Shown: positions 33,001 to 52,994 of the stretch, one piece after another
Position numbering within the stretch: the stretch's first letter is position 1
How the letters are laid out: every line of letters starts with the position of its first letter
Assembly (NCBI GenBank): GCA_052034235.1
Contig: JBPOIT010000009.1
Span: 8,203 to 72,202, forward strand
Reading direction: 5' to 3'
From: Candidatus Levyibacteriota bacterium
Lineage (GTDB): Bacteria > Patescibacteriota > Microgenomatia > Levybacterales > UBA12049
DNA length: 64,000 nt
Translations under genes and position numbers: made by a program
Notes under the pieces: generated by a model
Seen by the model: the letters and a program-made list of their open reading frames with translations, nothing else
Databases searched by the model: none
What the model was told of the DNA's origin: nothing

Positions 33001-36000
33001 ATGCGACAGGAAATATCCGTGGTACCACGATTAACCTGCCGAACGCAACAACACTCTCAGCAACAAGCGCGACAGCGAATTTTGATATCGTCACATCGGG
33101 CGGCGGTTACAGTAACTCAGGAGTCACGCTTTCAACTGCCGGTGATATTTCAGCAAATGGCGCACTCATTGTTGATGGCACATCAACCTTGACCGGCAAT
33201 GTGACTGCAAGTGCTGATGTCGCAGTCAACGGTGGAGATCTTACAACTACTGCTGGAACAGCTTCGATCTTTAATGCCAGCGCAACCACCATCAATTTGG
33301 GTGCAGGCGCAACAACAGGTATCAACATCGGTAATGCAGCAGGTACCACAACAGTCAATAGTGCACTGACAGTTGCAGCAGCTAGAACCTTTACAGCGGG
33401 CGGCCAATCAACCTTTAATCCAGACAGCACCAATGATGTCACAATGAACCTTGATGCTGATTCATTCTTAACACTCGTCGGTCTTCAATCAGCAGCCGGC
33501 AGTGGTCTGTGTATTAACGCCACCAATCAAGTTGTTGCATGTAATGATGCATCAGAAGGTTTGCAAGCTGCATATGACAACGGCAACAGTATCACGACAA
33601 CAACTGCACGTGACATCGTCTTTAATTTGGATGACACAGCAACTGATTCAAAGTTTGCAATCAATACCCTCTCTGGTGCAGCTGGCGGTGTTGAAATCAG
33701 TAGAGCTGATGGTACCGGAACAACAGATCCAACACAATTAGTTTTGATCCAAAACCAGGATACCAACAGAGCATTGCCAATTGCACTTCGAATCACCGGT
33801 GTCGCAGGCGGCGCTGTCACAACAGCACTTGATGTTTCAAATGCAGATATTGTTACAGCAATTGCACTTGGCGCCAATGACATCACCGGCTCTGTCTTTA
33901 ATGTCACCGGCTCAAATGGTAATGTCACAGCAGGAAATGTCGCAGTCAACGGCGGAGACCTGACAACAACTGCTGGGACCTTTAACTTGGTAAATACTGG
34001 TGCGACAACACTTAATGTCGGCGGTGCTGCTACCACCTACACACTCGGTGCAACCAACGCAACCGGAAATATCCGTGGCACAACAATCAACTTCCCGAAT
34101 GCAACATCAATTGTCGGGTCAGCTGCAACAGCAAGCTTCGCACAACTCAACACAGGCGGCGGTTATGGTTCAACAGGAACGACAATCGAAGGCAATGGCA
34201 CAATTAAAACCAAAGGTAACCTGACAGTTGACGGCACTTCCCTCCTCTCAGGTATTGCAACTGCATCTGCAGGTTTGGTAATTGATGGTGTCACACAATC
34301 AAGTCTTATTGCAGTAAAATCAACAGCAAATCTGTTTAATACTGTTGCGACGACACTTAATATCGGCGGCGCAGCAACAACTGTTTCACTCGGAGCAACA
34401 GGTGGAACAACAACAGTCAATGGAGCATTAACCGTTGCAAGTGCGCAAGCATTCCAAGCACTTGGTAACGCAACGCTTGGAAATGGCGATGATACAATCG
34501 CACTTAACGGCACAACAATTACACTGACAGCAAATGGCGCAGGCAATGACATCACTGCAAATCTGGTTGACGACAACACAGATGCACTTGATATCCAGCA
34601 AGGTACAAACAACTACATCAACATCAACACCTCAAATGGTACTGAAGAAATTCAATTTGGTAACGTTTCAACCAACCCAGATTACACATTCCTCGGAACC
34701 AGTGCGATGACCGTTGGTGGAGATTTGATTGTTAACGGTGGCGACCTGTATGCAACATCTGGTACAACAGTTAACTTATTCAACACCGCACAAACTGATA
34801 ATTTGAACATCGGTACTGATGCAAATGCAACCGTTTCAATCGGCGGTGCAAGTACACTGACAACAATCAATGGCGGACTGACCGTTTCAAGTACAACACT
34901 GAACACCAATATCGGTTCCCCACTCGTCAACTTGTCAGGCAACAATGCAGTAATCGATATGTCAGGAACCGGCACACTCGGCATCAACACCACAACAGAC
35001 AGAGCCGTCAACTTCGGAGCCGGTGCATTTAGTATTGAATCAGCAACAGTAACACTTACCGGTACCAACCCAGCAATTGCTGCATCCGGTGCAAACAATC
35101 TGCAGATTAATGGCGGCGCATCAGGACTTGTTCAAATTAACAACACCTCAACAGGAAACGTCGAAATCGCCGGCGGTTCAGGTGCAACTGGTTGTACCAT
35201 CAATAACAGTACCGGCGCACTTACCTGTTCAGGAAATATCACCTCAAGTGGCAGCTCAGGAAGTGTTACTGTCGGTTACTTCAGTAAAGACTTCGCAACA
35301 GGTGTTATCTCAAATGCAACTGCGAGTGATACCCTTGCTGTGAGTACAACCAGTGTTACCCAGCCAGCACTCGCTCTCACCAACAGTTCAACTGCTGGTG
35401 CAGCAAGTGGCACAACATACATGCTTGATATCCTCCGCTCTGGTGCTAATGCAAATGCTACCCATACTGCATACGGTGTCAGATCACGAGTAACCAATAC
35501 AGGATCAGGTGAAACAAATATTGCCGGTTACTTCTCCGCTTCAGGTGATGGAACTGGGGCTTATTATGCAGGTATCTTTGATGCAGGGAATGTCGGTGTC
35601 GGAACAACTGCTCCAAATGATAAATTAGTTCTTGGTGCAGGAAACAACTTCGGTATCAATGTCGGAGCTCCAACAACACTCTCTCTCACACCAAATGTAG
35701 GTGGTGGTACATTTGCAGCTGGAACATATTACTACAAAGTGACAGCGCTTGATGCAGCTGGTAATGAAACAACAAACAGTACTGAAAGTAGTGCAACAGT
35801 TGCACTTAACGGAACTATCAATGTTGACTGGGCGGCTGTATCAGGTGCGACATCATATCGCATATACCGTGGAACATCATCCAATAATCAGACAGTTTAC
35901 TTCACATCAACAAGTGATGTGTATCTTGATACAGGAACAGCTGGAACAGCTGGAACACCTCCATCAACTGGTTTCAACAATGCATATGCAATTAAACTGC

Positions 36001-39000
36001 TTAACACAGGAAGTGCATACATCGGCGGAAACCTTGGAATCGGCGACGGCTCCCCTGCTGCCCCATTGACAGTAGGAAGTGGAGATCTGTTCCAGGTAGC
36101 ATCAACCGGTAACATTACCTTTAATTACACCAGTCCAATCATTAACTTTGCAAATACCGGATCACTCACATTAAGAGACGGCACCAATAACCTATTCACC
36201 TTTGCTGATACATCAAGCACTGCTACTACATTCAATGTCGGTGTAAATGGAACCACGAACGGACAAATCACCTTTGGATCAGTTGCCGGAGGAACTCAAT
36301 CCTCTATCGTATCGGAATCAGATGGTGACCTCTGGATCCAATCAGGAACTGCAACAACAATCGTCGGTCGTGGAACAGGTGATGTCTTAATTCAACCTCC
36401 ATCTGGCAATCAAACAACCGTCAACTTGCAGGGTTCAGGAAGTAACTTCCGTGTCCAAAACGCAGGCGCGACATTCTTTAACTTATCAAATCTTGGCGCT
36501 ACAACCTGGACTCAGCCATCAGCACAGAGCGTCACACTTGATGCCGTAACAAACGCCTCTACATTAAACTCATTAACAGCAGGTGTCTTTGATATCAATG
36601 TTGGTTCCGGTGTTAGTAGCAATGTTGGTTTCACACTTGACTACACAGGTAACAATGGCGCTGCAGCCAGTAGCAAGATGTATGGTCAGAGAATTAACCT
36701 TATCCAAAATGATGCAGACTCACAATTACTTGGTCTTACCATTGGTCTTTCAAGTGCGGTAACTAAAAGTGGTGCAAACATCGTTGACTGTCTCCTCTGT
36801 CTCTCAAATGCAGTTGCACAAACTGCATCTATCTCTGATGCAATCAGAATCACATCGACAGGCGCAACAGCTGGTTCAATAACAAACGGTATAAACATCA
36901 ACACCACAGATGTCACAACAGACATCGTTCTTCAGAATGGTGAAACGATTGATAACAATACCAACGGTGTAGTAACAATTGGTGGAGCAGATCTTACACT
37001 CTCTTCCGTTACTGGTGACTTAATATTTGGTAATGGTGAATCTATTAATAACGATACTAATGGAAGAATCACCGTTGCCGGAGCAGATTTGGCTCTCTCA
37101 TCCACAACCGGTGATGTGATCTTTGGAAATGCTGAATCAATTGATAACGATACTAATGGTGTTATCAACATAAATGGAGCCTTGCAAATTGATGCAACAA
37201 CTGACGATAATGAAAGACTCTGTCATAGTGGCGCTGATGGCGCTACTCAAACAAACATTCTTATTAGAGACTGTACAGTTTCTGGACAAGACTTTGCTGA
37301 ATGGTCAATTGTCGCCTCTTCCAGTGCAGAACCAGGAGATGTTGTTTATGTAGTCGGTAATGATCTTACGGATAACACATTAACATTGAAAGATATAACA
37401 ACAAATGCATACCAAAATAATGCATCAGGTATTATCAGTACCAATCCATTTATCGATATTCTTGGAGATGAACAATATAAAGGCAAAGCAGGTGCAAAAC
37501 CAATTGCACTTTCAGGCCGCGTCCCAGTTAAGGTTTCAACTATCAACGGTAATATAGCAGTCGGCGATCCACTCGTTGCATCGGCAATACCAGGCGTCGC
37601 TATGAAAGCCACCCAAAAAGGCATGATTATTGGTTTTGCAGAAGAAGCTTTCGATGGTACTGTCAGAGTAAGTGCACAGGTACTCAAACAAGAAGAAATA
37701 TTCAACAGTGATCTTGATGACCGTCAAGCATACAATTCTAATCCAGCAAATTGGGATTCTAGTGTGGGTAAGATCATGACAACTATCAATCCTTTCTTCT
37801 ACGATCCAACAAACATAGGACCTTCATATAATGGTCTGGGCAATTGGATTCATAACGGTAACTTCGATATCCTTGGGGATCTTACAGCGAGTGCGGCGGC
37901 TTTTGGCAATAATAGTGAATTGACGATTGATGGGACTGGGAATTTGACGACTACAGGTGCGGTTCAGACTCCTCTGCTTGATCTTTTGTCTGGAACGATT
38001 GAAGGATTGGGTGGGAATGTGATTAGTAAATTGGCAGCAGATTATACCGGACTGGATGCAAACAAATTTGTCTTTAAGAATGCAGTCAATGCAGATCTCT
38101 TCTCTATCGACAGTACGGGGAATGCAACATTGTCTGGAACGTTGACAACTAACGGCGGTAATTATGATTTGGCTGAAGATTATGCAACCAAAGATAAATC
38201 GTTGCAAGAAGGTGACGTTGTTTCAGTTGATGTTTTGTATGACGAACATGTCCAAAAATCAGCTGGAGCATATGATACAACAATAGTCGGCGTTTATTCT
38301 GAGAAACCAGGATTTAGATTGTCACAAACTGGATCTACTATTAACGGTGGACGTGCTGTTCCAATTGCACTTGCAGGTCGTGTACCAGTCAAAGTGAATA
38401 CAGAAAATGGTCCAATCAAAAAGGGTGACTATCTGACATCATCCTCCACCCCTGGCGTTGCGATGAAAGCAACCAAACCAGGACAAGTTCTTGGTAAAGC
38501 ACTTGCTGACTTTAGTGGAACGGGTGTTGGCAAAGTTGTTACCTTTATCAATGTCACCTTTGCAGATCCACAAAACAAACTTGCAATCCTGACAGATGAG
38601 GCAGCAGCACCTTCAGAGTTGAGTGCAGCAAATGTTACACTTCCAGCTAACTTAACAATTGATGGCCAGGTCGTAAATGGTTCACTCGCCGATGCACTGA
38701 CAGTTATCAGTGAAAATCTCAGTGCGAAATCTGTTTCTATCAATGCGCTGCAAGCAGATCTCTTCACAAAGACTGCTAAAGACGTTGAACAGGACACCAA
38801 ACTTGCAGAGCTCTCAGACAAACAAGCATCAGATGCAGCTAGCCTTGAGAACCAAGCCTCACTGCTAGGTGATAAAGTAGCGTCAAATGAAGCTATTATC
38901 GCTAATCTGAGTAAACAAATTGAAGATATCAATAATGCGTCCAGTTCTGCAGATGTGACAGCTCTTGAAGCCCGACTGAATGCACTTATTGCACAATTGA

Positions 39001-39941
39001 CAGTAACACCTGCAGCAAGTGCAAGTGCGACTCCAACTCCAGCATCACAAAGTGCACAGACGAATCCAACACCAAGTGCAGATGATCTCACATCACCTGA
39101 CCTTCTTATTGCAACCAATTCAGCATTGCCGACAGATGCCAACTTCTTCTCAAGTGCAACGATTTCAGGAGAGCTGACAGCATACACAGCAACTGTCCAG
39201 GATACATTCAAATCATTTGGCAAATCATATCTCGGAGATACAACAATTAGTGGTGATGTAATGATTACCGGTCAGACACTTCTTAATAACACAGATGTCG
39301 CAGGGACTCTTAGTGTTGATGATCATATCAATGTTGCGGGAACGCTCACTATCACGGAGAATGCAATCAATGTCTTCGGCGGAACAGATGAATATGGTCA
39401 ACCAACAGGTGGTGTTCTCTATCTCCAGCAATCACCACTTGCTAACTTGCTTGATATCTTCAACGGCAATGTGGTGATCAATAAATCAGGAACAATTGTC
39501 ACCAAAGGTGATGTGAAAGCAAATAACATTGAAACCAAAAAGGATATCAATGTCGGTGGCAACATCAATCTTGAAGGCGGCATCACAATCAGTGCAACAG
39601 CAGGAGCAACGATAAAAGCTGGTGACGCTCTGTACATCTCAGCTGACAAACAAGTCCAAAAAGCTGACTCAAGATATGTCGACCGCGCAGATGTGATCGG
39701 TATTGCAGCAAATGACGCAGACGTCAACGAGCAGGTAAAAGTAATTATTAGCGGCAAAGCCAAAGGGCTCAGAGCACTTGAAGCAGGTGTTAAATATTAT
39801 CTCGGAATAAACGGAGGACTCACACCTGTTATTCCTGCGACTGCACTCAAAGATGTCCCAGTAGGAATCGCATTTTCAGAGACAGAACTGATCATTCAAT
39901 TGGGTTCCGAAAAACTCACCAGCGCCTCAGTAGTAAATTAA
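1..39941 (+). CDS. Giant repetitive surface protein, 5'-partial (at least 13,288 aa in window). T/G/N/A/S-rich beta-solenoid-like repeats with a phage tail-fibre-like C-terminal region.
   Basis: The frame is open from nt 3; translating nt 3-74 gives NDVSIITDADSFLNISGLTTATGN, which is part of the repeat consensus, so the gene continues upstream of the window. The stop is at 39939-39941. About 25 copies of a ~365-aa unit follow the pattern CxDA[TS][DN]NV.KC...LQ.AY.GGNTITTTDAR.I.FTLADT.TDS.F.VTTA. The composition is almost free of K/R/E/M/W/H and of Cys outside the paired motif. The C-terminus (34.9-39.9 kb) is non-repetitive. Confidence 0.85.
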   Translation, partial: NDVSIITDADSFLNISGLTTATGNVVCLDATNNVVRCAAGSISLQAAYNSGNTITTTNARGIDFTLADTATDSKFSVTTATGSTAGVEFIRADGIGADDPTQLVLIDNADADRILPIGLRLSSSGGGGITTAIDVSDATIGTALSFGANDLVGTNFTVIGGTGNITSAGDLALNGGDITTTQTTANVFNGTATTLNVGGSATSLTIGATTGTAAIRNATISLPNATAINAGSAVTTIDSLVLGGGYGTSGLSISNAGTIQANGNLTIDGTSTLTGNITSAGDLALNGGDITTTSLNASLFNANATTINIGSDATAITLGAATGTTTVNNDLAVTGTGTFTDTLTANGDFAANAASTFTPSGTNDVAIITDADSFLNISGLTTPGVAGSTLCVDASDNVTKCGGATFSLQAAYAGGNTITTSDARGIDFTLADTTTDSKFSVTTATGSTGGSEFLRADGAGTDDPAQLVLIQNLDVDRALPIGLKIAGVTGGNVTTALDLSDANITTAIALGANNIIGTQFSLIGSTGNIITSGDIAVNGGDITTTSGTGNIFTSGATTLNIGSAATTYTVGATNATGNIRGTTVNFPNATTVNGTLATANFDTVTSGQGYGNTGVTLSSAGNISANGALVIDGTSTLTGNVTAVADVAVNGGDLTSSQTTFNLLNTGVTTLNIGSAATAISIGAATGATTVNNALNVTGLATFNGGATVPTGETLTADGASNFTPDGTNSVTVNTDGDSFLKLTGLQTITGNLLCLDASDNVSKCSTSSISLQGAYTGGNSITTTSNRDISFTLADSVTDSNFVVTSATGSTGGSQFVRADGAGTSDPTQLVLIQNLDTDRDLPIGMRIAGVTGGNVTTAIDLSDANIVNALDLGANNITGTYFSVDGGTGSITTAGDIAVNGGDVTTTSTTATLFNTGATTLSIGGVATTYTLGATNATGNIRGTTINFPNATTINGTLATANFDTQTVGGGYGSTGVTISNTGNISANGNLIVDGTSTLTGNTTVGGTLGVTGATTLSSTLAVTGDTTLTGDLAVNGGDLTTTAATFNLINGNATTVNFAGAATSLIMGAPTGTAQIRNDVVSLPNATAFDALAALARVDGLQVGGGYGATGATITNTGNISANGALVIDGTSTLTGNVTAASDVAINGGDLTTTQTTFNLLDSVATTVNFAGAATTLEIGSGTGRTTLDNNLTANLVDNNVDALDIQEGLNNYININTSDNAENISFGNGTTNPTYNFVGTGLTTFASDIAVNGGDITTTSGTGNIFTSGATTLNIGSAATTYTLGATNATGNIRGTTINFPNATTINGTLSTANFDTVTSGQGYGNTGVTLSNTGNISANGALIVDGTSTLTGNVTAGADVAVNGGDLTTTAGTFNLLTANATAINFGSAATALSIGAGTGTTTVNNALTATGLITANGGATVATGQTFTANGASTFNPDSNNDVTINTDADSFLTVTGLQTATGTLVCLDGSDNIAKCSTSSISLQSAYTGGNTIATTDNRDIAFTLADTATDSNFIVTTATDSTGGSQFLRADGAGTSDPTQLVLIQNLDSDNALPIGLKIAGIAGGNITTALDLSDTNITTAIALGANSISGTNFSLNGTNGNVTTGGDVAVNGGDLTTTSGTFNLVNSGATTLNIGGVATTYTLGATNATGNIRGTTVNFPNATTINGTLATANFDTITSGQGYGTAGVTLSNAGDISANGALIVDGTSTLTGDVTAAADVAVNGGDLTTSATTFNLLNTTATTLNIGGDATTVSIGDATGTTTVNNALTATGLITANAGATVSTGQTFTANGQSTFTPNLTNDINITTDADSFLNIAGLTTATGNTVCIDATNNIVKCSAASITLQSAYDGGNTITTTDGRSIGFTLADTTTDANFSVTTAPGGEGYSYFGLTDGTNTTSPAQLVLVENLDTDEALATGIRIQSAAGGITTALDVSDIEIGTALLFGANDITGTNFSVTGTNGNVGTAGTITAAGNINANSGTLATTQTTGNLFNATVTTLNIGGAATTYTLGATNATGNIRGTTINFPNATAINGTSATANFDTITAGQGYGTAGVTLSNAGDISANGALIIDGTSTLTGNVTAATDVAINGGDLTTSATTFNLLNATATTINFGSAATALSIGAGTGTTNINNDLLIDGTTTSTGLATFNGGATVATGQTFLANGISTFSPDSTNDVTINTDADSRLVLTGLQTAAGNALCIDATNNVTLCNGAPFGLQAAYNTGNTITTTDARGIDFTLANTSTDANFSVTTAPGSTGYSYFALADGANATTPSQLVLVENLDTNQALPTGIRIQSAAGGITTALDVSDAEIGTAISFGANDLSGTYFSVAGGTGDVTSAGDAAFNGGDITTTSTNASLFDTNATTLSIGGAATTLTLGGNGGTATINNTTVALANATAFDALTALARVDGLQVGGGYGSTGVTITNTGNISANGNLIVDGTSTLTGNVTAGADVAVNGGDITTTSTNASLFDTNATTLNIGGAATAIAVGAGTGTTTLNNNLTVNLVDNNANALDIQENGNNYININTTDNAENISFGNGATNPTYNFVGAGLASFASDIAVNGGDILTSAATATVFNTNATNLSIGGAATTLTLGATTGTATIRNATVALPNALVGIGTASPISALQVTRPLSLGATGKALAIFDQNENQDILTASAAGVTRFTVSNAGNITNSGTITAGGDITTAGDLAVNGGDITTTAGTFNLVNTGATALNIGGDATAVSIGDTTGTTTINNATVNFANATSFTAPTAVATLDSLQIGGGYGSSGTTLTNTGNISANGALIIDGTSTLTGNVTTAGDIAVNGGDITTTQTTAALFNTNATTISIGSVATTISIGAGTGTTTINNNLGVTGTSTFTGLGTFNGGATVATGQTFTADGISTFTPDNTNDVTINTDADSFLVLSGLTTPVAAGTALCIDSSDNVTKCSGNTVTLQTAYTGGNTITTTDARGIDFTLANTTTDSNFSVTTADDATGFSAFTRVNGTGTNNPAQLILVDNLDTDQAIAAGIKIQSAGGGITNGLDVSDAQIVNAIALGDNNITGTYFSVDGGTGSITSAGDIAVNGGDVTTSATTGNLFNAGATIVNVGGAATTVAIGAATGTTTIYNQTLALPNATAINAGSAVTTIDSLVLGGGYGTSGLSISNAGTIQANGNLTIDGTSTLTGDVSTAGDLAVNGGDITTTAGIVNLVNANATTINFGSAATALSIGAATGTTNINNNLLVDGTTTSTGLATFNGGATVSTGQTFLADGISTFSPDSTNDVTINTDSDSFLVLTGLTTPVAAGTQLCVDATNNVTKCSGNTVTLQSAYTGGNTITTTDDRTISFTLADTAIDSNFSVQTAAGSTGYNYFSLQNGTNTTSPAQLVLVENLDVNEALATGIRIQSAAGGITTALDLSDADIVTALLLGLNDVTATNYSIAGATGNITTAGNVAVNGGAITTTAGTATIFNTGATDLSIGGDATTLSIGDATGTATINNATVALSNATAFDALTALARVDSLQVGGGYGAAGVTISNAGTIQANGNLTIDGTSTLTGDVTAAGDVAVNGGDITTSATTFNLATATATTLNIGSAGTTISIGANTGTTTINNDVVVDGTGTFSGLGTFNGGATVANGQSFTAGGQSTFTPTGTTDVVINTDADSLLTVTGLPTLTGTAVCIDGSNTIAKCSADSITLQSAYNGGNTITTTDARDISFTLADTTTDSKFAVTTATGSTGGVEFTRADGAGTADPSQLVLIQNLDTNRALPVGLKIAGVSGGNLTTALDLSDANITTAIALGTNNVVGTNFSITGSNGNIGTAGTVTAAGNINANSGTLATTETTGNLFNATVTTLNIGGAATTVEIGAATGTTSINNLTVALDNATAFDALSALARVDGLQVGGGYGAAGVTVSNTGNISANGALIVDGTSTLTGDVTAAGDLAVNGGDLTTSATTFNLLNATATTVNFAGAATTLSIGAATGTSNINNNLLVDGTTTSTGLATFNGGATVATGQTFTANGQSTFAPDSTNDINLTTDTDSFLNIAGLTTATGNAVCVDGSNNIVICSAASITLQSAYNGGNTITTADNKSISFTLADTSTDSNFSVTTADGSTGYSSFTRADGTGTSDPAQLILIDNLDTNRAVAAGIKVQAAGGGITNGIDLSDDEIVNALSLGANDITATNFSITGSNGNFGTTGTITATGNITSSADVAVNGGDLTTSAGTFNLVNSGATILNIGGDATTVAIGAATGTTTINNLTLALPNATAITAASALLTIDSLSVGNGYGSTGVTISNTGNVQANGNLTIDGTSTLTGDVTTAGNVAVNGGTISTTQTTANLFNANATTVNIGGAATTNFAGGYGATGVTLSSAGDISANGSLIIDGTSTLTGNVTTAGDLAVNGGDITSTAGTLNINAGGIVAIDDALTVTGTISDSNSNLILDDTVDIGGANGIRIDTTGDISDIDGEVTISDNTTINGTLTVTGAISDSNSNLSLNDNTDVTGDFTVSGRTTLGSATQGDGTLNVTGAQAGKALVILNETGDQNILTASASGTTVLNVMRNGNLQIEGSLSDLSDATLNINDSLDVAGNFTLTGTISDTNSNLILDDTVDIGGANGIRIDTTGQISDIDGIVAIVDNTTIDGTLTVTGAISDSNSNLSLNDNTDVTGTFTASGQTTIGTAVQGDGLFNVTGAQTGKALAIFNETGDQNILTASASGTTVFNLGRTGNVAIEGSLSDLSDAALTINDSLSVTGDATVTGITTLNGALIANSTANFQDVTGITVGVDAATNTKGVIKLIGEGSNNYSTTFQTGIQTQDVTYTLPLDDGSTNYVLSTDGNGVLSWQSASGVGAGTINAVGNVVTGSAFTGSDSSANKGNELYFEGSTSTDDGNEILLTAVNPSADRTYTMPDLGTNGTFAFLEGTQTFTGLKTFAPAADNVGLTVTSSTTDDGEGFRLNFTQSDDTNANDTGSALSIALTSSSGDADSLYGVNLEDISAGAANEVGLRIGAGYDYGIEFEGSSANNNELFLTAANATADRTITLPDLTGTVALLENAQSFTGLKSFTNASGIIVGEDLATNTKGVITLIGEGANNFSTTFQTTTQSQNITYTLPADDGVNNYVLSTDGSGNLSWQSASGVGAGTITAVGNVLTGTSFTGSDSSVQKGNELYFEGSTSTDDAYEILLTAVNPSADRIYTMPDLGTDGTFAFLEGTQTFSGAKTFNDLTIADTNVVLSGGDSTLDITGAATRTLSLLNSTGGQVANLDLTDGGLFTGSTSRLTNAGGLENITGYSQTSGNFQQTGAGTFSTGTGNVSLNGDTSVTSDNTFTVGTGLTSLGGQLGVSSYATFSATVDIADDTTIGGTLDVAGATTLNSTLDVDGTATFNGDILQTGSGALTTGTGAVTLNGDTTLVSGKTLTTTGSLAANGQSTFTPTGTNDVSFVTDTDSFINITGLTTATGTAVCIDATNNIVKCSAASSTLQGAYVGGNTITTSDARDITFTLANTATDSNFTVTTAAGGAGYSYFGLADGTNTAPPAQLVLVENLDTDEALPAGIKIQSASGGITNGLDVSDAQIVNAIALGENNITGTYFSVDGGTGNVTAAGSASIGGGYGSTGVTISSAGNIQANGTLTIDGTSTLTGDVTASGDLAVNGGDITTSSGTAAIFNTGATSLSIGGAATTLSLGAGTGTTTVNNALTATGLITANAGATIPTGQSLTANGASTFSPNLTNDVTINTDTDSFLTITGLTTPGLAGNALCVDATNNVTKCAASTFTLQGAYDGGNSLTTTDARNISFTLADTSTDSNFAITTADGSTGYTSFTRANGAGTADPAQLILVDNLDTDRSITAGIKIQSAAGTITNGIDLSDIEIVNALSLGANDIIASNFTLNGNNGDITTAGDIAVNGGTITTTQATAEIFNTNATNLSIGGAATTLSLGAATGTATINNATVNFANATSFTAAGAAATFDSVAVGGGYGSTGATISNTGNISANGVLIVDGTSTLTGDVTTAGDIAVNGGDITTSAGTAALFNTGASTVNIGGDATTVSIGDATGTTTVNNALTATGLITANAGATVATGQTFTANGQSTFTPNLTNDISITTDTDSFLNVAGLTTATGNALCIDATDNIVKCSAASITLQSAYTGGNTITTTDARGIDFTLANTATDSNFSITTADDSTGFSAFTRVNGTGTNNPAQLILVDNLDTDQAIAAGIKIQSAAGGITNGIDLSDIDIVNALSLGANDVIASNFSITGSNGNIGTGGTITATGDINANSGTLATTQTTANLFNATATTLNIGGAATTLTLGAATGTATINNATINFPNATSFTAPNAAATFDSVAIGGGYGTAGATISNAGTIQANGNLTIDGTSTLTGDVTTGGTINANGGTIATTQTTANLLNATATTVNFAGAATTLSIGAATGTSNINNNLLVDGTTTSTGLATFNGGATVATGQTFSAGGQSTFTPDSTNDINITTDADSFLNIAGLTTATGNTVCIDATNNIVKCSAASITLQSAYNGGNTITTTDNKSISFTLANTATDSNFSVQTAAGGAGYSYFGLVDGTNTAPPAQLVLIENLDTDEALDTGLRIQAAAGGINTAIDLSDADIDTALLLGANDVTGSNFSITGSNGNIGTGGTITATGDITSGGNLAANTGSLTTTATSANLFNTNATTLAIGGAATTLTLGATTGTATISNATINFPNATSFTAPNAAATFDSVAIGGGYGAAGATISNSGTIQANGNLTIDGTSTLTGNVTTAGDVAVNGGDVTTTQTIAALFNTNATTLNIGGVATTISIGAGSGTTTVNNALTATGLITANAGATVANGQTFTAGGQSTFTPTGTNDVSITTDADSFLNVAGLTTAAGDNICIDATNNIVKCATASVTLQEAYDGGNTITTTDARSIDFTLANTATDSNFSVQTAAGSTGYNYFSLANGTNTTSPAQLVLIENLDTDEALDTGIRIQAAAGGINTAIDLSDADIDTALLLGANDVTGASFSITGANGNIGTGGTITAAGDINANSGTLATTQTTANLFNTNATTLNVGGAATSVVLGATTGTATINNATVNFANATSFTAPTAAATLDSLQIGGGYGSSGTTLTNTGNISANGALVIDGTSTLTGNVTTAGDVAVNGGDVTTTFATGNLFNTNATTVNVGGAATAYTIGAPTATGNIRGTTINFTNATTIDANLAAASIDSATIGGGYGTSGVSISNAGTIQANGNLTVDGTSTLTGDVTTAGDVAVNGGDLTSSAGTFNLVNTGTTTLNIGGDATTVSIGDATGTTTVNNALTATGLITANAGATVATGQTFTANGASTFSPNLTNDVTINTDADSFLVLTGLQTAAGDTVCIDATNNIVKCATAAGTLQSAYNSGNTITTTDARDLTFSLANTSTDSNFTITTAAGSTGYTYFGLADGTNTTPPAQLVLVENLDTDEALPAGIKVRSASGTITNGIDLSDDEIVNALTLGANDVTATNFSITGTNGNIGTGGTITAAGNINANSGTLATTQTTGNLFNATVTTLNIGGAATTYTLGATNATGNIRGTTINFPNATAINGTSATANFDTITSGQGYGTAGVTLSNAGDISANGALIIDGTSTLTGNVTAATDVAINGGDLTTSSTTFNLLNATATTINFGSAATALSIGAGTGTTNINNNLLVDGTTTSTGLATFNGGATVATGQTFTANGQSTFTPNLTNDINITTDADSFLNVAGLTTAAGDNICIDATNNIVICATAAVTLQGAYDGGNTISTTDARNISFTLEDTATDSNFSVQTAAGGAGYSYFGLADGTNTTPPAQLVLVENLDTNEAVPAGIKIQSAAGGITTALDVSDAEIGTALLFGENNITGTYFSVTGSNGNVGTAGTITAAGNINANSGTLATTQTTANLFNATATTLNIGGAATTLNLGANSGTATINNATINFPTATSFTAPNAAATFDSVAIGGGYGSTGVTISTAGNIQANGTLTVDGVSTLTGNVTASADLAVNGGDLTSSQTTFNLLNSGVTTLNIGNDATTVSIGETTGTTTVNNDLAVTGAGTFTGTLTANGDFAANSASAFTPSGTNDVTITSDADSFLVLPGLTTPGTAGSTLCVDATNNVTKCSANTITLQSAYTGGNTITTTNNRDISFTLANTATDSNFAVTTADDSTGYAAFTRVNGTGTNNPAQLILVDNLDTDQAIAAGIKIQSAAGTITNGIDLSDIDIVNALSLGANDIIATNFTLDGTTGTITTAGDLALNGSDITTTSTGIASVFNTNATTLNVGGAATALNLGAATGTATINNATINFPTATSFTAPNAAATFSSVAIGGGYGSTGVTISTAGNIQANGTLTVDGVSTLTGNVTAAADLAVNGGDLTTNQTTFNLIDAGATTVNFAGAATTLAIGAGTGTTTLDNNLTANLVDNNADALDIQENGYNYININTTDGSEEVAFGNGTTNPIYSFLGNGATSFAGNVAVNGGTLSTSQSSANLFNTNATTLSVGGAATTLNLGATTGTANIRNVTINFANATSFTAPNAAATFDSVAIGGGYGSTGVTISNAGNIQANGTLTVDGVSTLTGNVTAAADVAINGGDLTSSQTTFNLLNSGVTTLNIGSDATVLSLGDATGTTTVNNALTVTGAATFNGGATVPASQTFSANGVSTFAPNLTNDVTFTTDSDSTIILNGLGTTTGTPLCLDATNNVVQCANASLSLQNAYVGGNTITTTDARNISFTLADTATDSNFSVQTAAGGAGYSYFGLVDGTNTAPPAQLVLIENLDTDEALDTGLRIQADAGGINTAIDLSDTDIDTALLLGANDVTGSNFSITGTNGNIGTGGTITATGNINANSGTIATSQSTGNLFNTTATTLNIGGAATTYTLGATNATGNIRGTTINFPNATTINGTLATANFDIITSGQGFGNSGVTLASNGNISGDGDLTIGGAAAITGTATVTGDVAVNGGDLTTTATTFNLLNSTATTVNFAGAATTLAIGAGTGTTNINNDLLIDGTTTSTGLATFNGGATVSNGQTFNANGASNFAPTLTNDITFTTDTDSTVILNGLGTTTGTPLCLDATNNVVQCANATLSLQNAYAGGNTITTTDARNIGFTLANTTTDSNFTVTTAAGSEGYSYFGLADGTNTAPPAQLVLVENLDTDEALPAGIKIQSAAGGITNGIDLSDPEILNALSLGLNDVTANNFSITGSNGNIGTGGTITATGNITTAGDVAANGGDVTTTTSTGNLFNTNATTVNIGGVATALTLGANTGSATIRNETVTFSNATTFDATSATANFNIVTAGQGYGNTGVTLGNTGNIQANGTLTIDSTSTLTGNVTAAADVAINGGDLTSSQTTFNLLNSGVTTLNVGGVATALNFGAATGTTTINNLTLALPNATAINATAATANLDIVNVGGGYGSAGVTLGNTGNIQANGNLTIDGTSTLTGDVTAAADVAINGGDLTSSQTTFNLLNSGVTTLNVGGAATTLSLGAGTGTTTLNNNLTANLMDDSADALDIQEASHNYINVNTTNNFEEIQFGNTVTNPIYSFLGSGASTFSGNINANSGTIATNQTIANLFNTTATTLSIGGAATNLTMGANNSGTTTIRNSTLALPNARVGIGTSTPISMLHVTRPLSLGAIGKATAIFDQYESQDILTASAAGTTRFTVSNAGNITNSGTITAGGDITTTGDVAVNGGDLTTTAGTAALFNTGATTVNIGGAATTVNIGNAAGTTFVNGGLTVANGETFTAGGQSTFTPTGTNGVTITTDADSFLTVNGLASATGTAVCIDATNHIITCDDASQSLQSAYDNGNSITTTNNRDIDFTLANTGTDSLFSVSTADDSTGYSVFSRTNGAGTNDPTQLVLIDNEDADRALPVGLKISSTGGGGITTGIDLSDATIDDAIILGANDVVGSSFTIDGSNGNITTTGVIAANGGSITTNQTTANVFNTNATSLSIGGAATTLNLGATTGTAAIRNATISFPNATTVSAANATGNFSALTTGGGYASTGTTISSTGDIQTKGALTVDGISTLTGNVTASADLAVNGGDLTTTSGTAALFNTGATTLNIGGAATTVSIGNAAGTTTVNGGLTVANGETFTAGGQSTFTPTGTNGIAITTDADSFLTIDGLAAVTGGTLCVNTSDQVGTCSAASFSLQAAYDAGNNITTTDAKPIDFVLANTTTDSNFSVTTADGSIGHSVFARANGVGTSDPAQLILVDNLDTNRAVAAGIKVQAASGGITNGIDLSDAEILNALSLGDNDIISTNFTLTGSNGNLTTTGAIAANGGTISTDDTTFTLVDANATTVNFAGAATTLNIGAGSGTATINNQTISLPNATALSASGATVTIDAATIGGGYGSAGVSITNAGNISANGALIVDGTSTLTGNVSTNGDIAVNGGDVTTTFATGNLFNSGATTLNIGGAATTVSLGNAGGTTTINGNLTLGADKTLTTTGAVSLTPSGTLDVAITTDSDSFLNISGLTTTTGAQPTLCVDATNNVVKCDLTANASLQAAYDNGNSIATTNNRNIDFTLTNDVTDSNFLITTADGSTGKTIFARANGAGTTDPSQLVLINNADANRPLPVGLAITSSGGGGVTTGIDLSDASIDDALVLGANDVVGSSFTIDGSNGNIQTSGTAAINSGTISTTSSTGSLFDTNATTITLGSAATTYTIGATNATGNIRGTTINFPNATTINGTAAALNVLSSAIGGGYGTAGTTLSAAGDISANGALIVDGTSTLTGAVTASNGVTINGASTSDLIAAKTTANLFNTVATTLNIGGAATTINIGNAAGTTTVNGGLTVANGETFTAGGQSNFTPTGTDGITITTDADSFLTLNGLASDPGTAICIDATNHVITCDNTSQNLQAAYDAGNNITTTDARSIDFVLDDTTTDSNFSVTTADGATGYSVFSRENGTGTADPAQLILVDNADANRPITTGIKVTSSGGGGFGTGIDVSDASITTGIALGENDLSATNFSIVGSTGNFSTNGDLEVKGNDITTTTAGVAAVFNTNATTINIGGAATTYTLGATNATGNIRGTTINLPNATTLSATSATANFDIVTSGGGYSNSGVTLSTAGDISANGALIVDGTSTLTGNVTASADVAVNGGDLTTTAGTASIFNASATTINLGAGATTGINIGNAAGTTTVNSALTVAAARTFTAGGQSTFNPDSTNDVTMNLDADSFLTLVGLQSAAGSGLCINATNQVVACNDASEGLQAAYDNGNSITTTTARDIVFNLDDTATDSKFAINTLSGAAGGVEISRADGTGTTDPTQLVLIQNQDTNRALPIALRITGVAGGAVTTALDVSNADIVTAIALGANDITGSVFNVTGSNGNVTAGNVAVNGGDLTTTAGTFNLVNTGATTLNVGGAATTYTLGATNATGNIRGTTINFPNATSIVGSAATASFAQLNTGGGYGSTGTTIEGNGTIKTKGNLTVDGTSLLSGIATASAGLVIDGVTQSSLIAVKSTANLFNTVATTLNIGGAATTVSLGATGGTTTVNGALTVASAQAFQALGNATLGNGDDTIALNGTTITLTANGAGNDITANLVDDNTDALDIQQGTNNYININTSNGTEEIQFGNVSTNPDYTFLGTSAMTVGGDLIVNGGDLYATSGTTVNLFNTAQTDNLNIGTDANATVSIGGASTLTTINGGLTVSSTTLNTNIGSPLVNLSGNNAVIDMSGTGTLGINTTTDRAVNFGAGAFSIESATVTLTGTNPAIAASGANNLQINGGASGLVQINNTSTGNVEIAGGSGATGCTINNSTGALTCSGNITSSGSSGSVTVGYFSKDFATGVISNATASDTLAVSTTSVTQPALALTNSSTAGAASGTTYMLDILRSGANANATHTAYGVRSRVTNTGSGETNIAGYFSASGDGTGAYYAGIFDAGNVGVGTTAPNDKLVLGAGNNFGINVGAPTTLSLTPNVGGGTFAAGTYYYKVTALDAAGNETTNSTESSATVALNGTINVDWAAVSGATSYRIYRGTSSNNQTVYFTSTSDVYLDTGTAGTAGTPPSTGFNNAYAIKLLNTGSAYIGGNLGIGDGSPAAPLTVGSGDLFQVASTGNITFNYTSPIINFANTGSLTLRDGTNNLFTFADTSSTATTFNVGVNGTTNGQITFGSVAGGTQSSIVSESDGDLWIQSGTATTIVGRGTGDVLIQPPSGNQTTVNLQGSGSNFRVQNAGATFFNLSNLGATTWTQPSAQSVTLDAVTNASTLNSLTAGVFDINVGSGVSSNVGFTLDYTGNNGAAASSKMYGQRINLIQNDADSQLLGLTIGLSSAVTKSGANIVDCLLCLSNAVAQTASISDAIRITSTGATAGSITNGININTTDVTTDIVLQNGETIDNNTNGVVTIGGADLTLSSVTGDLIFGNGESINNDTNGRITVAGADLALSSTTGDVIFGNAESIDNDTNGVININGALQIDATTDDNERLCHSGADGATQTNILIRDCTVSGQDFAEWSIVASSSAEPGDVVYVVGNDLTDNTLTLKDITTNAYQNNASGIISTNPFIDILGDEQYKGKAGAKPIALSGRVPVKVSTINGNIAVGDPLVASAIPGVAMKATQKGMIIGFAEEAFDGTVRVSAQVLKQEEIFNSDLDDRQAYNSNPANWDSSVGKIMTTINPFFYDPTNIGPSYNGLGNWIHNGNFDILGDLTASAAAFGNNSELTIDGTGNLTTTGAVQTPLLDLLSGTIEGLGGNVISKLAADYTGLDANKFVFKNAVNADLFSIDSTGNATLSGTLTTNGGNYDLAEDYATKDKSLQEGDVVSVDVLYDEHVQKSAGAYDTTIVGVYSEKPGFRLSQTGSTINGGRAVPIALAGRVPVKVNTENGPIKKGDYLTSSSTPGVAMKATKPGQVLGKALADFSGTGVGKVVTFINVTFADPQNKLAILTDEAAAPSELSAANVTLPANLTIDGQVVNGSLADALTVISENLSAKSVSINALQADLFTKTAKDVEQDTKLAELSDKQASDAASLENQASLLGDKVASNEAIIANLSKQIEDINNASSSADVTALEARLNALIAQLTVTPAASASATPTPASQSAQTNPTPSADDLTSPDLLIATNSALPTDANFFSSATISGELTAYTATVQDTFKSFGKSYLGDTTISGDVMITGQTLLNNTDVAGTLSVDDHINVAGTLTITENAINVFGGTDEYGQPTGGVLYLQQSPLANLLDIFNGNVVINKSGTIVTKGDVKANNIETKKDINVGGNINLEGGITISATAGATIKAGDALYISADKQVQKADSRYVDRADVIGIAANDADVNEQVKVIISGKAKGLRALEAGVKYYLGINGGLTPVIPATALKDVPVGIAFSETELIIQLGSEKLTSASVVN
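3588..3735 (+). repeat. Insert module ALDIQE-NYININT-(D/N)xxExI(S/Q)FGN-TNPxY-F-G, copy 1 of 5
   Basis: TANLVDNNVDALDIQEGLNNYININTSDNAENISFGNGTTNPTYNFVG. Paralogous copies lie at 7548-7695, 25172-25320, 28412-28560 and 34552-34700. Confidence 0.7.
7548..8290 (+). repeat. Composite module: ALDIQE/NYININT insert followed by a VGIGTASPISALQVTRPLSLGATGKALAIFDQ...ILTASAAG.TRFTVSNAGNITNSGTITAGGDITT block. It is paralogous to 28412-29120.
   Basis: Long collinear protein similarity between the two blocks, for example PNA[LR]VGIGT[AS][ST]PIS.L.VTRPLSLGA.GKA.AIFDQ.E.QDILTASAAG.TRFTVSNAGNITNSGTITAGGDITT. Confidence 0.7.
13040..16300 (+). repeat. Divergent internal block that interrupts the super-repeat array. 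It holds two tandem ~490-nt modules (13255-13745 and 13750-14235: TGTISDSNSNLILDDTVDIGGANGIRIDTTG.ISDIDG...GKAL.I.NETGDQNILTASASGTTV) and two ~470-nt modules (14300-14770 and 15170-15640: NTKGVI.LIGEG.NN.STTFQT..Q.Q..TYTLP.DDG.NYVLSTDG.G.LSWQSASGVGAGTI...GNELYFEGSTSTDD..EILLTAVNPSADR.YTMPDLGT.GTFAFLEGTQTF.G.KTF).
   Basis: Direct protein and DNA self-similarity. The DNA pairs are ~90% identical, for example 14590-14750 vs 15460-15620. Confidence 0.7.
28412..29120 (+). repeat. Second copy of the composite insert + VGIGTSTP module (paralog of 7548-8290)
   Basis: NLTANLMDDSADALDIQEASHNYINVNTTNNFEEIQFGNTVTNPIYSFLG ... PNARVGIGTSTPISMLHVTRPLSLGAIGKATAIFDQYESQDILTASAAGTTRFTVSNAGNITNSGTITAGGDITTTGDVAVNGGDLTTTAGT. 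Confidence 0.7.
35701..35940 (+). other. Fibronectin-type-III-like domain inside the giant protein, flanked by tail-fibre-type G-x-G-x-G-T-x-x-P motifs (NVGVGTTAPNDKLVL at ~35598-35645; GNLGIGDGSPAAPLTV at ~36028-36075)
   Basis: GTYYYKVTALDAAGNETTNSTESSATVALNGTINVDWAAVSGATSYRIYRGTSS matches the Fn3 pattern Y.Y.V.A.D..GNES..S..V...W..V.GA..Y.IYR. The flanking VG[IV]GTTxP motifs are typical of phage tail-fibre and chlorovirus-glycoprotein-type repeats (from memory). Confidence 0.5.
36910..37200 (+). repeat. Three tandem ~27-aa repeats (LQNGETIDNNTNGVVTIGGADLTLSSVTGDLIFGNGESINNDTNGRITVAGADLALSSTTGDVIFGNAESIDNDTNGVININGA)
   Basis: Direct reading of the translated sequence. Confidence 0.7.
37220..38570 (+). 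other. Duplicated C-terminal modules of the giant protein: D[FL]AE[WD]...GDVV.V ... GR[VA]P[IV]KV...G.I..GD.L..S..PGVAMKAT. Copy 1 lies at ~37220-37690 and copy 2 at ~38140-38570. A coiled-coil segment (~38600-39010) and a possible third degenerate copy (~39600-39900) follow.
   Basis: Copy 1: DFAEWSIVASSSAEPGDVVYVV...KPIALSGRVPVKVSTINGNIAVGDPLVASAIPGVAMKATQKG. Copy 2: DLAEDYATKDKSLQEGDVVSVD...AVPIALAGRVPVKVNTENGPIKKGDYLTSSSTPGVAMKATKPG. The region 38600-39010 is heptad-like and rich in A/L/E/Q/K/S. The family assignment (tail-fibre tip or intramolecular-chaperone-like) is not established. Confidence 0.45.
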
Positions 39942-40247: not shown

Positions 40248-41228
40248 TTAATCACGTTTAACAACCTCGTCATACACCTTCTTGGAGATTTGTTCTATAA
40301 CTTCTTCTTGATCTGCAATATTTTTCCCTTTAGTCATAATGCATAGAGCATATGGACTTTCAGGATAATAGACAATACCACAATCGTGTAATTGTTGTTC
40401 ATCGCCACGTTTTATCTCTCCGAATTTGTGCGCAACAGGTATGCCTGATGGAATACCTGCTACTAATCCTTCTTTAAATTCTGTTTGTGATAAAAATTCC
40501 AATGCTTTATTAGACATTTCAAAATTTAGATATGATGAATTATAAAGAATTCGAAAAATTGCAGCATATGAATGTACGGCAATATACTGTTCTATATCAC
40601 CTTTTCTTGGATCTATGATACCTAGATCACTTAATGTATCAATGAAATCTTCTTGCGAATACTCTTGATTCAAATATTTTAAAAGCAGCTCCTGTGCAGT
40701 ATTTTCTGATTGTGTGATAAGAATTTTTAGTACTTCTTCAATCGTATATGTTTTACCTTTCTCAATCTTTACCTTCGGTTTGATATTTTGATCTACGATC
40801 TTAATATCACTTACCACAGTGAGCGTTTTTTTCAATAATGAAGGGTCTGCCTCTGCCTTTTTTAAATAAGTCATCAGCAGGGGTACTTTGAGTAAACTGG
40901 CTGGTGCAAAATCTTCGTTTGCATTAATACTCATCAGTGGACCATTTTGAAGATCTCTAAAATGTATCGCAACAGTGGACACTTTCCCTGCTGCGCTTTC
41001 AGTCTCAATAACTTCCAACAGATCATTTCGTAAAGTTACGTATTCCTTCTTTTTAACAGGATCCGTTTCGCAACGCAGAGGATTTAGATACGCATAGGGA
41101 CATTCTGCTTCTGTTGAGATTTGTGTCAAATTTTTACTTTTTTTTGCAGAAGTATTATATAAAGAAAACCCTAGTGCAAGGATGATAGTTAATAAAATTA
41201 GATAAATAATTATATTAGTTTTATTCAT
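40248..41228 (-). CDS. Secreted/membrane-anchored serine hydrolase with class A beta-lactamase fold (SxxK, SEN)
   Basis: 326 aa. N-terminal TM/signal (IIIYLILLTIILALGF), PASLLK (SxxK), ITQSENTAQ (S[DE]N-like loop), and KFGE near the C-terminus. About 40% identical to the adjacent paralog. Confidence 0.6.
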   Translation of the reverse strand: MNKTNIIIYLILLTIILALGFSLYNTSAKKSKNLTQISTEAECPYAYLNPLRCETDPVKKKEYVTLRNDLLEVIETESAAGKVSTVAIHFRDLQNGPLMSINANEDFAPASLLKVPLLMTYLKKAEADPSLLKKTLTVVSDIKIVDQNIKPKVKIEKGKTYTIEEVLKILITQSENTAQELLLKYLNQEYSQEDFIDTLSDLGIIDPRKGDIEQYIAVHSYAAIFRILYNSSYLNFEMSNKALEFLSQTEFKEGLVAGIPSGIPVAHKFGEIKRGDEQQLHDCGIVYYPESPYALCIMTKGKNIADQEEVIEQISKKVYDEVVKRD

Positions 41229-47821: not shown

Positions 47822-47822
47822 C

Positions 47823-52520: not shown

Positions 52521-52994
52521 ATGGTCGAAAACTTCACTCTTTCACAATTCAATTCTCTCTACCCTACAGATGATATTTGTCTTGAGAAAATCAAGAGAAT
52601 TAAATACCCCAAAGGTATCGTTTGTATATCCTGTAAAAAAATAACCAAGCATTACAAGGTAAAGAATAGACCTGCTTACACGTGCAAAATCTGTCGAAGT
52701 CAATTGTATCCACTTGCCGGTACAATTTTTGAAAAATCCTCTACTCCACTACGATTATGGTTTTATTCCCTCTATCTCATGATCACAACAAGAGGAGATG
52801 TCTCGGCAAAAGGCCTTCAGAGGGAATTAGGAGTAACATACAAAACTGCATGGAGAATACGTAGTGCAATTTATAAACTGATGGCCCAAAACGGAGGCGA
52901 CTTACTTGCAAAAGAGCCAGAGGAAAATACTATTAAAAAATGGACCTTCTTCAAACGTCTTACCTTTAGTGTCACAGAAACACAAAAAGGTTAG
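52521..52994 (+). mobile_element. IS1595-family (ISXO2-like) transposase, N-terminal zinc-ribbon/HTH fragment only. The DDE catalytic domain is absent.
   Basis: 157 aa. The CxxC...CxxC zinc ribbon and PLRLWFYSLYLMITTRGDVSAKGLQRELGVTYKTAWRIRSAI match the N-terminal module of IS1595/ISXO2 transposases. No DDE-domain ORF follows in any frame. Confidence 0.6.

Follow-up and report, generated by a model that had tools for sequence, protein, structure and literature searches.

The stretch of DNA analysed here, which we call the window, comprises 64,000 nucleotides (nt) from a Candidatus Levyibacteriota bacterium (assembly GCA_052034235.1, contig JBPOIT010000009.1, positions 8,203 to 72,202), and much of it is occupied by one giant open reading frame (ORF) whose last ~880 residues (nt ~37290-39938) probably constitute a C-terminal trimerisation and self-cleavage cassette of a very long cell-surface fibre. 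The frame is open from window base 3 and continues beyond the left edge of the window, so that the protein has at least 13,312 amino acids (aa). Its cassette is predicted to consist, in this order, of two tandem beta-tulip domains that each begin with the motif D-x-A-E, a helix of ~105 residues, a disordered linker, a beta-rich segment and a single beta-tulip cap. By fold and motif, the two tandem beta-tulip domains (modules 1 and 2) appear to form a divergent branch of the autochaperone superfamily that includes the C-terminal domain D4 (Peptidase_G2) of gp12, the tail-spike or pre-neck appendage protein of phage phi29. We number residues from window base 3; the aa numbers of a first-pass annotation, which had been made from the letters and ORFs of the same DNA, are lower by 24.

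The two modules, which the first-pass annotation had described as repeats of ~140 aa, are 40% identical across 124 aa (E=7e-20) and are detected by a hidden Markov model (HMM) with 124.9 bits for module 1 (envelope aa 12426-12575, nt 37278-37727) and 200.4 bits for module 2 (aa 12718-12860, nt 38154-38582). The motifs by which they had been recognised prove to be the conserved motifs of a whole protein family, the consensus of which reads D-x-A-E-x-Y ... GDVV ... G(I/V)(V/I)S..PG ... VALAGRVPVKV..ENG.I..GD.LT.S..PGVAMKAT..G..IGKALE. Direct comparisons of window segments with Pfam, PHROGs, NCBIfam and the sequences of the PDB gave sub-threshold matches only: Peptidase_G2 (PF11962, gathering score 25 bits) has no match in these segments at E<=1, and the sole Pfam match of module 2 alone is to XM1_gp53_minor_capsid (22.7 bits, cut-off 27), a model that scores 18.5-22.7 bits on this module across the comparisons. 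A profile of 30 diverse module copies, compared with all PDB sequences, has as its top matches the C-terminal fragment of phi29 gp12 (3gqh_A, E=0.004) and full-length gp12. In hhalign, the module profile aligns with gp12 residues 680-854 at a probability of 92.7% (E=4e-7), and the first ~76 residues of the module can be aligned to gp12 at 29% identity. Peptidase_G2 is matched at E<=0.01 by four of 30 aligned module copies; the Pfam threshold is reached by homologue P0040 (25.1 bits) and by a copy in homologue P0070 that aligns residue for residue with module 2 (36.5 bits versus the required 25, E=4.4e-9).

The predicted fold leads to the same superfamily. Models made with AlphaFold 2 (AF2) cover aa 12403-12870 and aa 12853-13312, both as monomers. 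Averaged over blocks of 10 residues, the predicted local distance difference test (pLDDT) is mostly 80-88 in module 1, with dips to 55-72, and 86-98 in module 2, with one block at 74. When the model of the modules is compared by Foldseek with the PDB, the first rank is taken by 3suc, the pre-mature form of phi29 gp12 (E=2.7e-5), followed by the tandem beta-tulip capsid cement proteins BB1, Pam3, HFTV1, T1, phi29 gp8.5, XM1 and TW1; the gp12 fragment 3gqh_A ranks below the cement proteins (E=1e-3, template-modelling score 0.55 on the target). Among the predicted viral structures in BFVD, the matches include proteins labelled "Preneck appendage protein", tail or tail-fibre proteins, an "intramolecular chaperone auto-processing domain" (IMC), DUF2190 and giant-virus proteins. 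The suspicion, voiced in the first-pass annotation, that the duplicated module might be an auto-processing domain in a layout like that of phage tail fibres or tailspikes has thus been borne out, in that the modules are of the gp12 autochaperone type by profile, by fold and through the copy in P0070. Its suggestion that the domain might be undescribed can be retained only in a narrow sense, since the fold and the superfamily have been described (bioRxiv 10.1101/216911) and it is only this divergent branch for which no Pfam model reaches its threshold. A chaperone of the Peptidase S74 type, which the annotation had also named, receives no PF13884 match in the window, nor do the nearly invariant columns of the module show a Ser-x5-Lys pair where the domain begins; a Ser/Lys dyad was not found.

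The alignment to gp12 gives a particular meaning to the first residues of the module. Its D-x-A-E falls on D692-F-A-E695 of gp12 (hhalign), of which we take the D and the E to be catalytic residues. As gp12 is cut between S691 and D692, the D of the module is aligned with residue 1 of the released 163-residue fragment 3gqh_A, that is, with D692 of the 854-residue protein. Both window modules retain D-[FL]-A-E, and among 165 module copies the D is kept in 156, the A in 160 and the E in 155. The Pfam match to XM1 gp53 begins at module residue 22, which leaves the motif outside the matched region. A motif that is ~95% kept and lies outside this match appears to be conserved for something besides the shared fold, and the combination of its conservation, its position at the gp12 cut and its location outside the match to a non-cleaving relative argues that it is kept for cleavage. 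Variants of the motif (SIAVEY, AITQDY, NLAQDY, SIAQDY and DIAQDF) are found in homologues P0006 (972-1119), P0020 (771-923), P0016 (631-777), P0030 (278-425) and P0008 (181-322), where the remainder of the module is kept; judged by sequence, these copies look like natural "cleavage-dead" versions.

Homologues of the cassette are numerous. A search with the last 910 aa found at least 1,461 proteins, with named sources among the Woese-, Levy-, Davies- and Uhrbacteria, the Saccharimonadales and other Patescibacteria. The HMM built from the two window copies detects the module in all of the 120 homologues listed; about half of these have two copies and one has three, and in every one of them 69-461 residues trail the last copy. 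When 1.84 billion cluster representatives were searched exhaustively with HMMER, the module was detected in 31,220 proteins (E<=0.001), of which 25,575 also reach E<=1e-10; the best 150 are mostly 1,000-6,800 aa long with two copies near the C-terminus. Typical carriers are Patescibacteria proteins of large or giant size, with one to three modules close to the C-terminus. The module also occurs in cultured phages, namely the jumbo phages Atu_ph07 (Agrobacterium) and Phosso (Sinorhizobium) and the PA5oct group. In Pseudomonas phage PA5oct (NC_071039.1 45682-47118, locus L004) the module ends a virion structural protein of 478 aa, ~39 aa from the stop codon; the gene adjoins that for the long-tail-fibre distal subunit, and the record states that the protein was detected by mass spectrometry. 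A Peptidase_S74 domain accompanies the G2-like module in homologues P0032 and P0068, and some proteins with the module (homologues P0036, P0037 and P0284) carry a match to Intein_splicing (PF14890). For one of these the source record gives the name "replicative DNA helicase"; the intein-like match has probably led to a wrong annotation here.

A comparison of identity by segments across 12 related loci separates the C-terminal part of the protein from what precedes it. Module 2 is the best-conserved segment, at 63-77% identity in 11 of the 12 loci and 49% in the twelfth. The beta-rich region (42-69%) and the terminal tulip (49-62%) are each recognisable in eight loci and, at 37%, in a ninth, and the linker between the modules is 36-73% identical in relatives. 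By comparison, the Fn3-like domain upstream of the cassette is found in three of the 12 loci, the region after it (tipB) in four and the 32-aa repeats in two. A conserved C-terminal block behind a mosaic upstream region is the pattern of fibre genes in which a helper is kept and the recognition end is swapped. The extreme end of the protein had been taken for a receptor-binding tip, and the distribution of conservation is the opposite of what is usual for one; together with the analogy to gp12, by which all that lies beyond the start of the first D-x-A-E would belong to the helper part, it makes the end of the protein more likely a conserved assembly device than a binding tip.

Beyond module 2, the helix is nearly continuous over its ~105 residues (H43-130 and H132-147 of the model, with a one-residue break at 131), with block pLDDT values of 63-93 that are ~90 for most of its length, and it displays one clear stripe of L/I with a 7-residue period, the partner position of which is mostly A/S/V. 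A coiled coil, as the first-pass annotation had proposed for nt 38600-39010, is plausible from the model, in which the helix matches that position, but the 3.5-residue periodicity does not rise above that of shuffled sequences. Matches of the helix to PspA, SMC-like proteins and DUF1664 were weak, were taken as compositional and were not accepted as identities. The low confidence of the beta-rich region is as would be expected if it folds only as an oligomer. The terminal domain (block pLDDT mostly 79-91, two blocks at 57-63) is matched in Foldseek by the base of the phi29 gp8.5 head fibre, YSD1, HFTV1, SHP, lambda gpD and a MoeA subdomain, with root-mean-square deviations of 1.3-2.6 A across ~56-66 columns. 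Its predicted single beta-tulip fold agrees with a weak match to Pfam Phage_cement_2 (PF09956, 20.3 bits versus a cut-off of 24), which homologue P0010 passes with 25.9 bits; matches of the segment to "head scaffolding/decoration" PHROGs are likewise sub-threshold. The D-x-A-E motif is absent from the terminal domain. This segment had been thought to resemble a third, degenerate copy of the module; as such it was rejected, since sequence comparison does not detect one (module HMM score -1.4, hhalign probability 0.3%), and what survives of the idea is that a single beta-tulip is, by predicted fold, half of the fold of the module.

Homology, fold, the alignment and conservation of the motif, the spread of the family and the pattern of conservation are results of the comparisons described so far; trimerisation, self-cleavage, a surface location and the function of the tip we infer from the analogy to phi29 gp12 and to chaperones of other fibres, as follows. 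The C-terminal end might bring three chains into register, with the helix and the rings of beta-tulips serving as nuclei of trimerisation, and the upstream beta-structured fibre would then be able to fold. The chain would subsequently cut itself before D12430 and/or D12722 and release the helper part, leaving a mature fibre that terminates in the variable region of the Fn3-like domain and the 32-aa repeats, which is the likelier end for contact and recognition. Domain D4 of gp12 is a tandem beta-tulip autochaperone that is required for trimer assembly (bioRxiv 10.1101/216911), and a short triple coiled coil within the chaperone of T5 pb1 has been proposed as the point from which that protein folds (PMC4690869), which provides a precedent for the long helix of the window protein.

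Several considerations weigh against a self-cleaving trimerisation cassette. The window modules score below every Pfam threshold, the structural models are those of single chains, and the 3.5-residue periodicity of the helix was equalled by 299 of 2000 shuffles and is therefore not significant. The N-terminus of the protein lies beyond the left edge of the window, with any signals for export or anchoring out of view. Xiang and co-workers reportedly found in 2009 that the release of gp12 needs ATP, and ATP is not available outside the cell. Unlike D4 of gp12, the modules are internal, with ~880 and ~450 residues after them, and it is a puzzle, to be kept in mind as a caution, that a large amount of conserved sequence would be discarded on cleavage. 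Finally, the D or the E has been lost from the copy equivalent to module 2 in several homologues (...ITQDY, ...LAQDY, DIAQDF). This loss implies that cleavage at module 2 is dispensable in some lineages and that a role as a clamp of the trimer may be the primary one.

The main alternative, less probable but reasonably likely, is that the modules and the terminal domain stay in the mature fibre for good as structural or adhesive elements, either as beta-tulip rings that clamp the trimer or as a binding tip, and that the chain never cuts itself. The fold is common to trimeric decoration proteins that do not cleave, the window modules score slightly higher against XM1_gp53_minor_capsid than against Peptidase_G2, and the internal position of the modules ahead of a long conserved sequence, like the retention of copies that have lost the D or the E, is readily accommodated by a permanent role. 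The second half of the module, with the motif GRVPVKV..ENG.I..GD.LT.S..PGVAMKAT, is, moreover, conserved far beyond what the match to gp12 needs, which hints at a function of its own. The capsid cement proteins provide precedents, as does the P22 tailspike with its C-terminal fin, which stays uncleaved; for P22, an auto-chaperone that is not cut off has been proposed (PMC4690869). What speaks against permanent parts is that D-x-A-E-x-Y is ~95% conserved exactly at the position of the gp12 cut and outside the match to XM1 gp53, that both window copies keep the D, the A and the E, and that a conserved C-terminal cassette with a mosaic region upstream would be unusual for a binding tip. We favour the self-cleaving cassette. 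An elaboration of it, which we regard as doubtful, is a two-stage, ATP-free extracellular device in which the tandem G2 autochaperones, a trimeric helix and the cap would bring three chains of more than 13,000 residues into register and then cut themselves off sequentially to expose a mosaic recognition tip, so that Patescibacteria would possess micrometre-scale "cellular tail fibres", built by the logic of phage fibres, for attachment to their hosts.

Other origins and functions were weighed and found much less probable. Every recognisable domain of the protein has a phage counterpart (gp12 D4, decoration proteins, the Fn3-like domain of Baseplate_J proteins) and the module occurs in jumbo phages as well, all of which might be expected if the giant gene were the tail-fibre gene of a phage or prophage, or part of a phage-derived particle. 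We consider this very improbable for an ORF of at least 13,312 aa that is followed, over the next 24 kb, by housekeeping and envelope genes (RuvABC, ValRS, L25, a P-type ATPase, Wzy_C) and by no phage genes. In 12 of 17 related loci, too, the homologous ORF spans the whole upstream stretch compared (10 kb where the contig allows), which indicates that very large genes are the rule here, and a conserved chromosomal neighbourhood lies downstream; a prophage origin was rejected on account of this neighbourhood and of the cellular genes downstream. Hardly any credence can be given to the idea that the modules are enzymes acting in trans, as proteases or other hydrolases aimed at host or prey cells. 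The gp12 domain is filed by MEROPS as a peptidase, family G2, which counts in its favour. Giant proteins of other ultra-small bacteria have also been linked to cell-wall degradation (bioRxiv 10.1101/2023.11.21.568195). However, Pfam, PHROGs, NCBIfam and Foldseek returned no match to an enzyme family or structure except for the beta-tulip subdomain of MoeA, which is not its catalytic site, and the only activity known for G2 is one cut within its own chain.

Table. Features of the giant ORF and of its downstream neighbourhood, in window coordinates (nt).
Feature	Position	Strand	Basis or remark
Repetitive bulk of the giant ORF	3..34898	+	Thr/Gly/Ala/Asn-rich; context, outside the cassette
Non-repetitive transition region, ending in GYFSASGDG...GNVGVGTTAPNDKLVL (nt 35526-35633)	34899..35657	+	self-comparison, sequence
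Fn3-like beta-sandwich domain, aa 11886-11990	35658..35972	+	weak direct matches and homologues
Second [VL]G[IV]G..(S/T)P motif, GNLGIGDGSPAAPLTV	36027..36074	+	regular expression
Three tandem 32-aa repeats, aa 12308-12403	36924..37211	+	unit starts at aa 12308, 12340, 12372
Predicted self-cleavage site 1, Q12429 / D12430-F-A-E12433	37287..37301	+	alignment to gp12; cleavage predicted
Module 1, G2-like tandem beta-tulip autochaperone domain, aa 12430-12575	37290..37727	+	HMM, AF2, Foldseek
Inter-module linker, ending in a short fibre-like stretch ...LFSIDSTGNATLSGTLTTNGGNY	37728..38165	+	AF2 pLDDT mostly <50
Predicted self-cleavage site 2, Y12721 / D12722-L-A-E12725	38163..38177	+	alignment to gp12; cleavage predicted
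Module 2, G2-like tandem beta-tulip autochaperone domain, aa 12722-12860	38166..38582	+	HMM, AF2, conservation
Long alpha-helix, aa 12895-12999, candidate trimeric coiled coil	38685..38999	+	AF2
Pro/Thr/Ala/Ser-rich linker, predicted disordered	39000..39197	+	AF2 pLDDT <50
Beta-strand-rich region, low-confidence monomer model	39198..39572	+	short strands, pLDDT 40-57
Terminal single beta-tulip domain, aa 13193-13302, phage decoration/cement type	39579..39908	+	AF2, Foldseek
Two adjacent Beta-lactamase2-family (PF13354) paralogues	40248-41228, 41246-42253	-	N-terminal hydrophobic segment in each
Conserved neighbourhood genes	50034-52361 (-), 44747-47821 (+), 47769-49433 (+)		related loci L005-L015
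IS1595-type zinc-ribbon ORF	52521-52994	+	adjoins the Mg_chelatase/ComM-like ORF
Mg_chelatase/ComM-like ORF	53430-54245	+	match begins at profile position 50 of 207

Ahead of the cassette, the giant protein (Table) is for the most part repetitive. When the ORF is called mechanically from the GTG at position 75 it has 13,288 aa, and its end at 39941, as given in the first-pass annotation, agrees with the ORF list. Its composition is dominated by T (19.8%), G (13.3%), A (13.2%) and N (10.1%), and the GC content of the gene is ~47% compared with 35-44% in the flank. Self-comparison in windows of 120 aa gives matches of 60-86% identity in the bulk only; these high-identity repeats cease at ~aa 11,580-11,640 (nt ~34,750-34,920), beyond which, with the exception of the module pair, there are only weak low-complexity self-matches, so that the non-repetitive C-terminal region that had been placed from 34900 onwards is confirmed. 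Three sampled stretches of the bulk, of 1,300-1,430 aa each, have no Pfam family matches, and past aa 11,600 there is no transmembrane anchor, as judged by the absence of any 19-residue stretch with a Kyte-Doolittle mean >1.35.

The transition region between the bulk and the Fn3-like domain is kept in some relatives only. The two segments that had been reported to flank that domain are both present (see Table); when [VL]G[IV]G..(S/T)P is applied as a strict regular expression, it matches at aa 2629, 9585 and 12011, and a GNVGVGTTAP copy at aa 11862 was found separately. As for the Fn3-like domain itself, the earlier proposal finds indirect support in relatives, the window sequence itself remaining below threshold: the latter scores 16.9 bits against the Pfam family GH85_C (cut-off 27) and matches the "Fn3-like protein" 3mpc in the PDB at E=0.02, with the two aligned pieces in swapped order, whereas homologues 50-58% identical across aa 11886-11989, phage Baseplate_J proteins among them, score above the threshold of GH85_C, at 39.8 and 34.7 bits, and the stretch can be aligned with a protein that has 10 true fn3 domains. 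As proteins P0268, P0270 and P0283 illustrate, the domain is also 45-58% identical to a domain of phage Baseplate_J (gp47/JayE-like) proteins and of several unrelated large proteins, a similarity that suggests a mobile domain common to phage baseplates and these cellular fibres. The three tandem repeats downstream of it do exist as had been described, with a period of 32 aa and not 27, and their units share 12-19 of 32 residues. Directly before module 1 there is a pair of Cys residues (aa 12407 and 12424, nt ~37221-37274) in the context ERLCHSG...IRDCTVSGQ|DFAE, and comparable "DC..." stretches are found ahead of the module in homologues P0029, P0043 and P0066; the pair could form a disulfide-closed loop that ends the mature fibre.

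Downstream of the giant gene, in addition to the genes already mentioned, the 24 kb contain two Beta-lactamase2 paralogues, a PKD/CBM96 protein and a 1,024-aa secreted protein, and the Wzy_C gene encodes a membrane protein that also has TPR repeats. The related loci come from metagenome-assembled genomes (MAGs) of Patescibacteria, Levyibacteriota, Daviesbacteria and Saccharimonadales and from several genomes of 1.3-1.6 Mb labelled "uncultured Gammaproteobacteria", with cassette identities of up to 62%. The latter label is attached to loci L005, L006, L009-L012, L014-L016, L018 and L019, of which L005 and L006 lie on contigs of 1.3 and 1.6 Mb; it looks like a placeholder or an error, because the cassette and its neighbourhood are common to MAGs of Patescibacteria. 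The genes for the Wzy_C+TPR protein and the 1,024-aa protein are syntenic in most related loci. The Wzy_C (O-antigen-ligase family) protein is 58-74% identical in 10 loci and 28% identical in an eleventh, and among loci L005-L015 the 1,024-aa protein is found in nine and a 554-aa protein in four. A fibre rich in Thr/Ser might be glycosylated with the help of the Wzy_C protein, but the shared gene order may also be plain synteny among relatives. The Beta-lactamase2 pair, directly downstream of the giant gene, recurs in L005 and L006; both paralogues are membrane-anchored, each with a hydrophobic N-terminal segment. The ComM-like ORF may, from the start of its profile match, be an N-terminally truncated gene.

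If the self-cleaving cassette is real, it would offer a testable account of how uncultured, host-dependent bacteria assemble and mature enormous surface fibres, and the likely recognition end would be found upstream of the cassette and not at the end of the chain. The unnamed family of 31,220 cluster representatives is tied to one experimentally studied phage domain, and the annotation of thousands of large "hypothetical" proteins would gain from the link to gp12. Should the more doubtful two-stage device also be true, it would be the defining element of >25,000 protein clusters, a family that has yet to be named. In a limited literature search, neither this branch nor tandem copies inside giant proteins of Patescibacteria were found to have been described. 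Sequence relatives of gp12 in the PBCV-1 protein Vp260 and in bacterial adhesins had already been seen by the authors of the gp12 structure, and the general idea that adhesins of bacteria might mature in the manner of gp12 dates from 2009 (both reported in bioRxiv 10.1101/216911).

Of the systems with which the window protein can be compared, the giant proteins of the Omnitrophota resemble it in size class and in a repetitive bulk that is dark to Pfam; the window lineage belongs instead to the Patescibacteria, and the paper on the Omnitrophota proteins contains no wording on "tail fiber", "autocleav-" or "beta-tulip" and uses "chaperone" in other senses only. The Peptidase_S74 chaperones (PF13884; K1F, T5 pb1 and GA-1, and MYRF in animals) are similar in that they, like the proposed cassette, are C-terminal trimerisation helpers that remove themselves, and they differ by a helical/tentacle fold and a Ser-Lys dyad, the window having neither an S74 match nor the dyad. 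The beta-tulip fold is shared with the cement and decoration proteins (lambda gpD, phage 21 SHP, the base of phi29 gp8.5, XM1 gp53, BB1, Pam3, TW1 and HFTV1; PF09956 and PF23982), the modules being of the tandem-tulip and the terminal domain of the single-tulip type, with weak sequence matches in addition. The small beta-tulip fold builds decoration proteins of the lambda gpD type, and beta-tulip cement and decoration proteins act as trimers (bioRxiv 10.1101/216911). These are, however, small stand-alone binders of capsids that have no D-x-A-E, whereas the window domains are embedded in a giant ORF among cellular genes, and capsid genes are absent from its surroundings.

The closest likeness is to D4 of phi29 gp12 (PF11962; 3suc and 3gqh), which is also a tandem beta-tulip with an initial D-x-A-E and is also located C-terminal to a beta-structured fibre. 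It differs in that the window has two copies, neither at the extreme C-terminus and both below the Pfam gathering score that, with that position, characterises PF11962; in that the two tulips of gp12 are separated by an insertion which the window modules lack; and in that GRVPVKV..GD.LT.S..PGVAMKAT is strong in the window family and faint in gp12 (LLGQIAVRID). Moreover, gp12 is a virion protein of 854 aa and the window protein a giant cellular one. Neither the fold nor the principle is new. What distinguishes the cassette is that a large family, so far unannotated, can be given a concrete and testable proposed mechanism, and that it belongs to organisms about whose surfaces little is known. 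It is also a clear case of one beta-tulip unit at work in phage capsids, phage fibres and cellular giant proteins.

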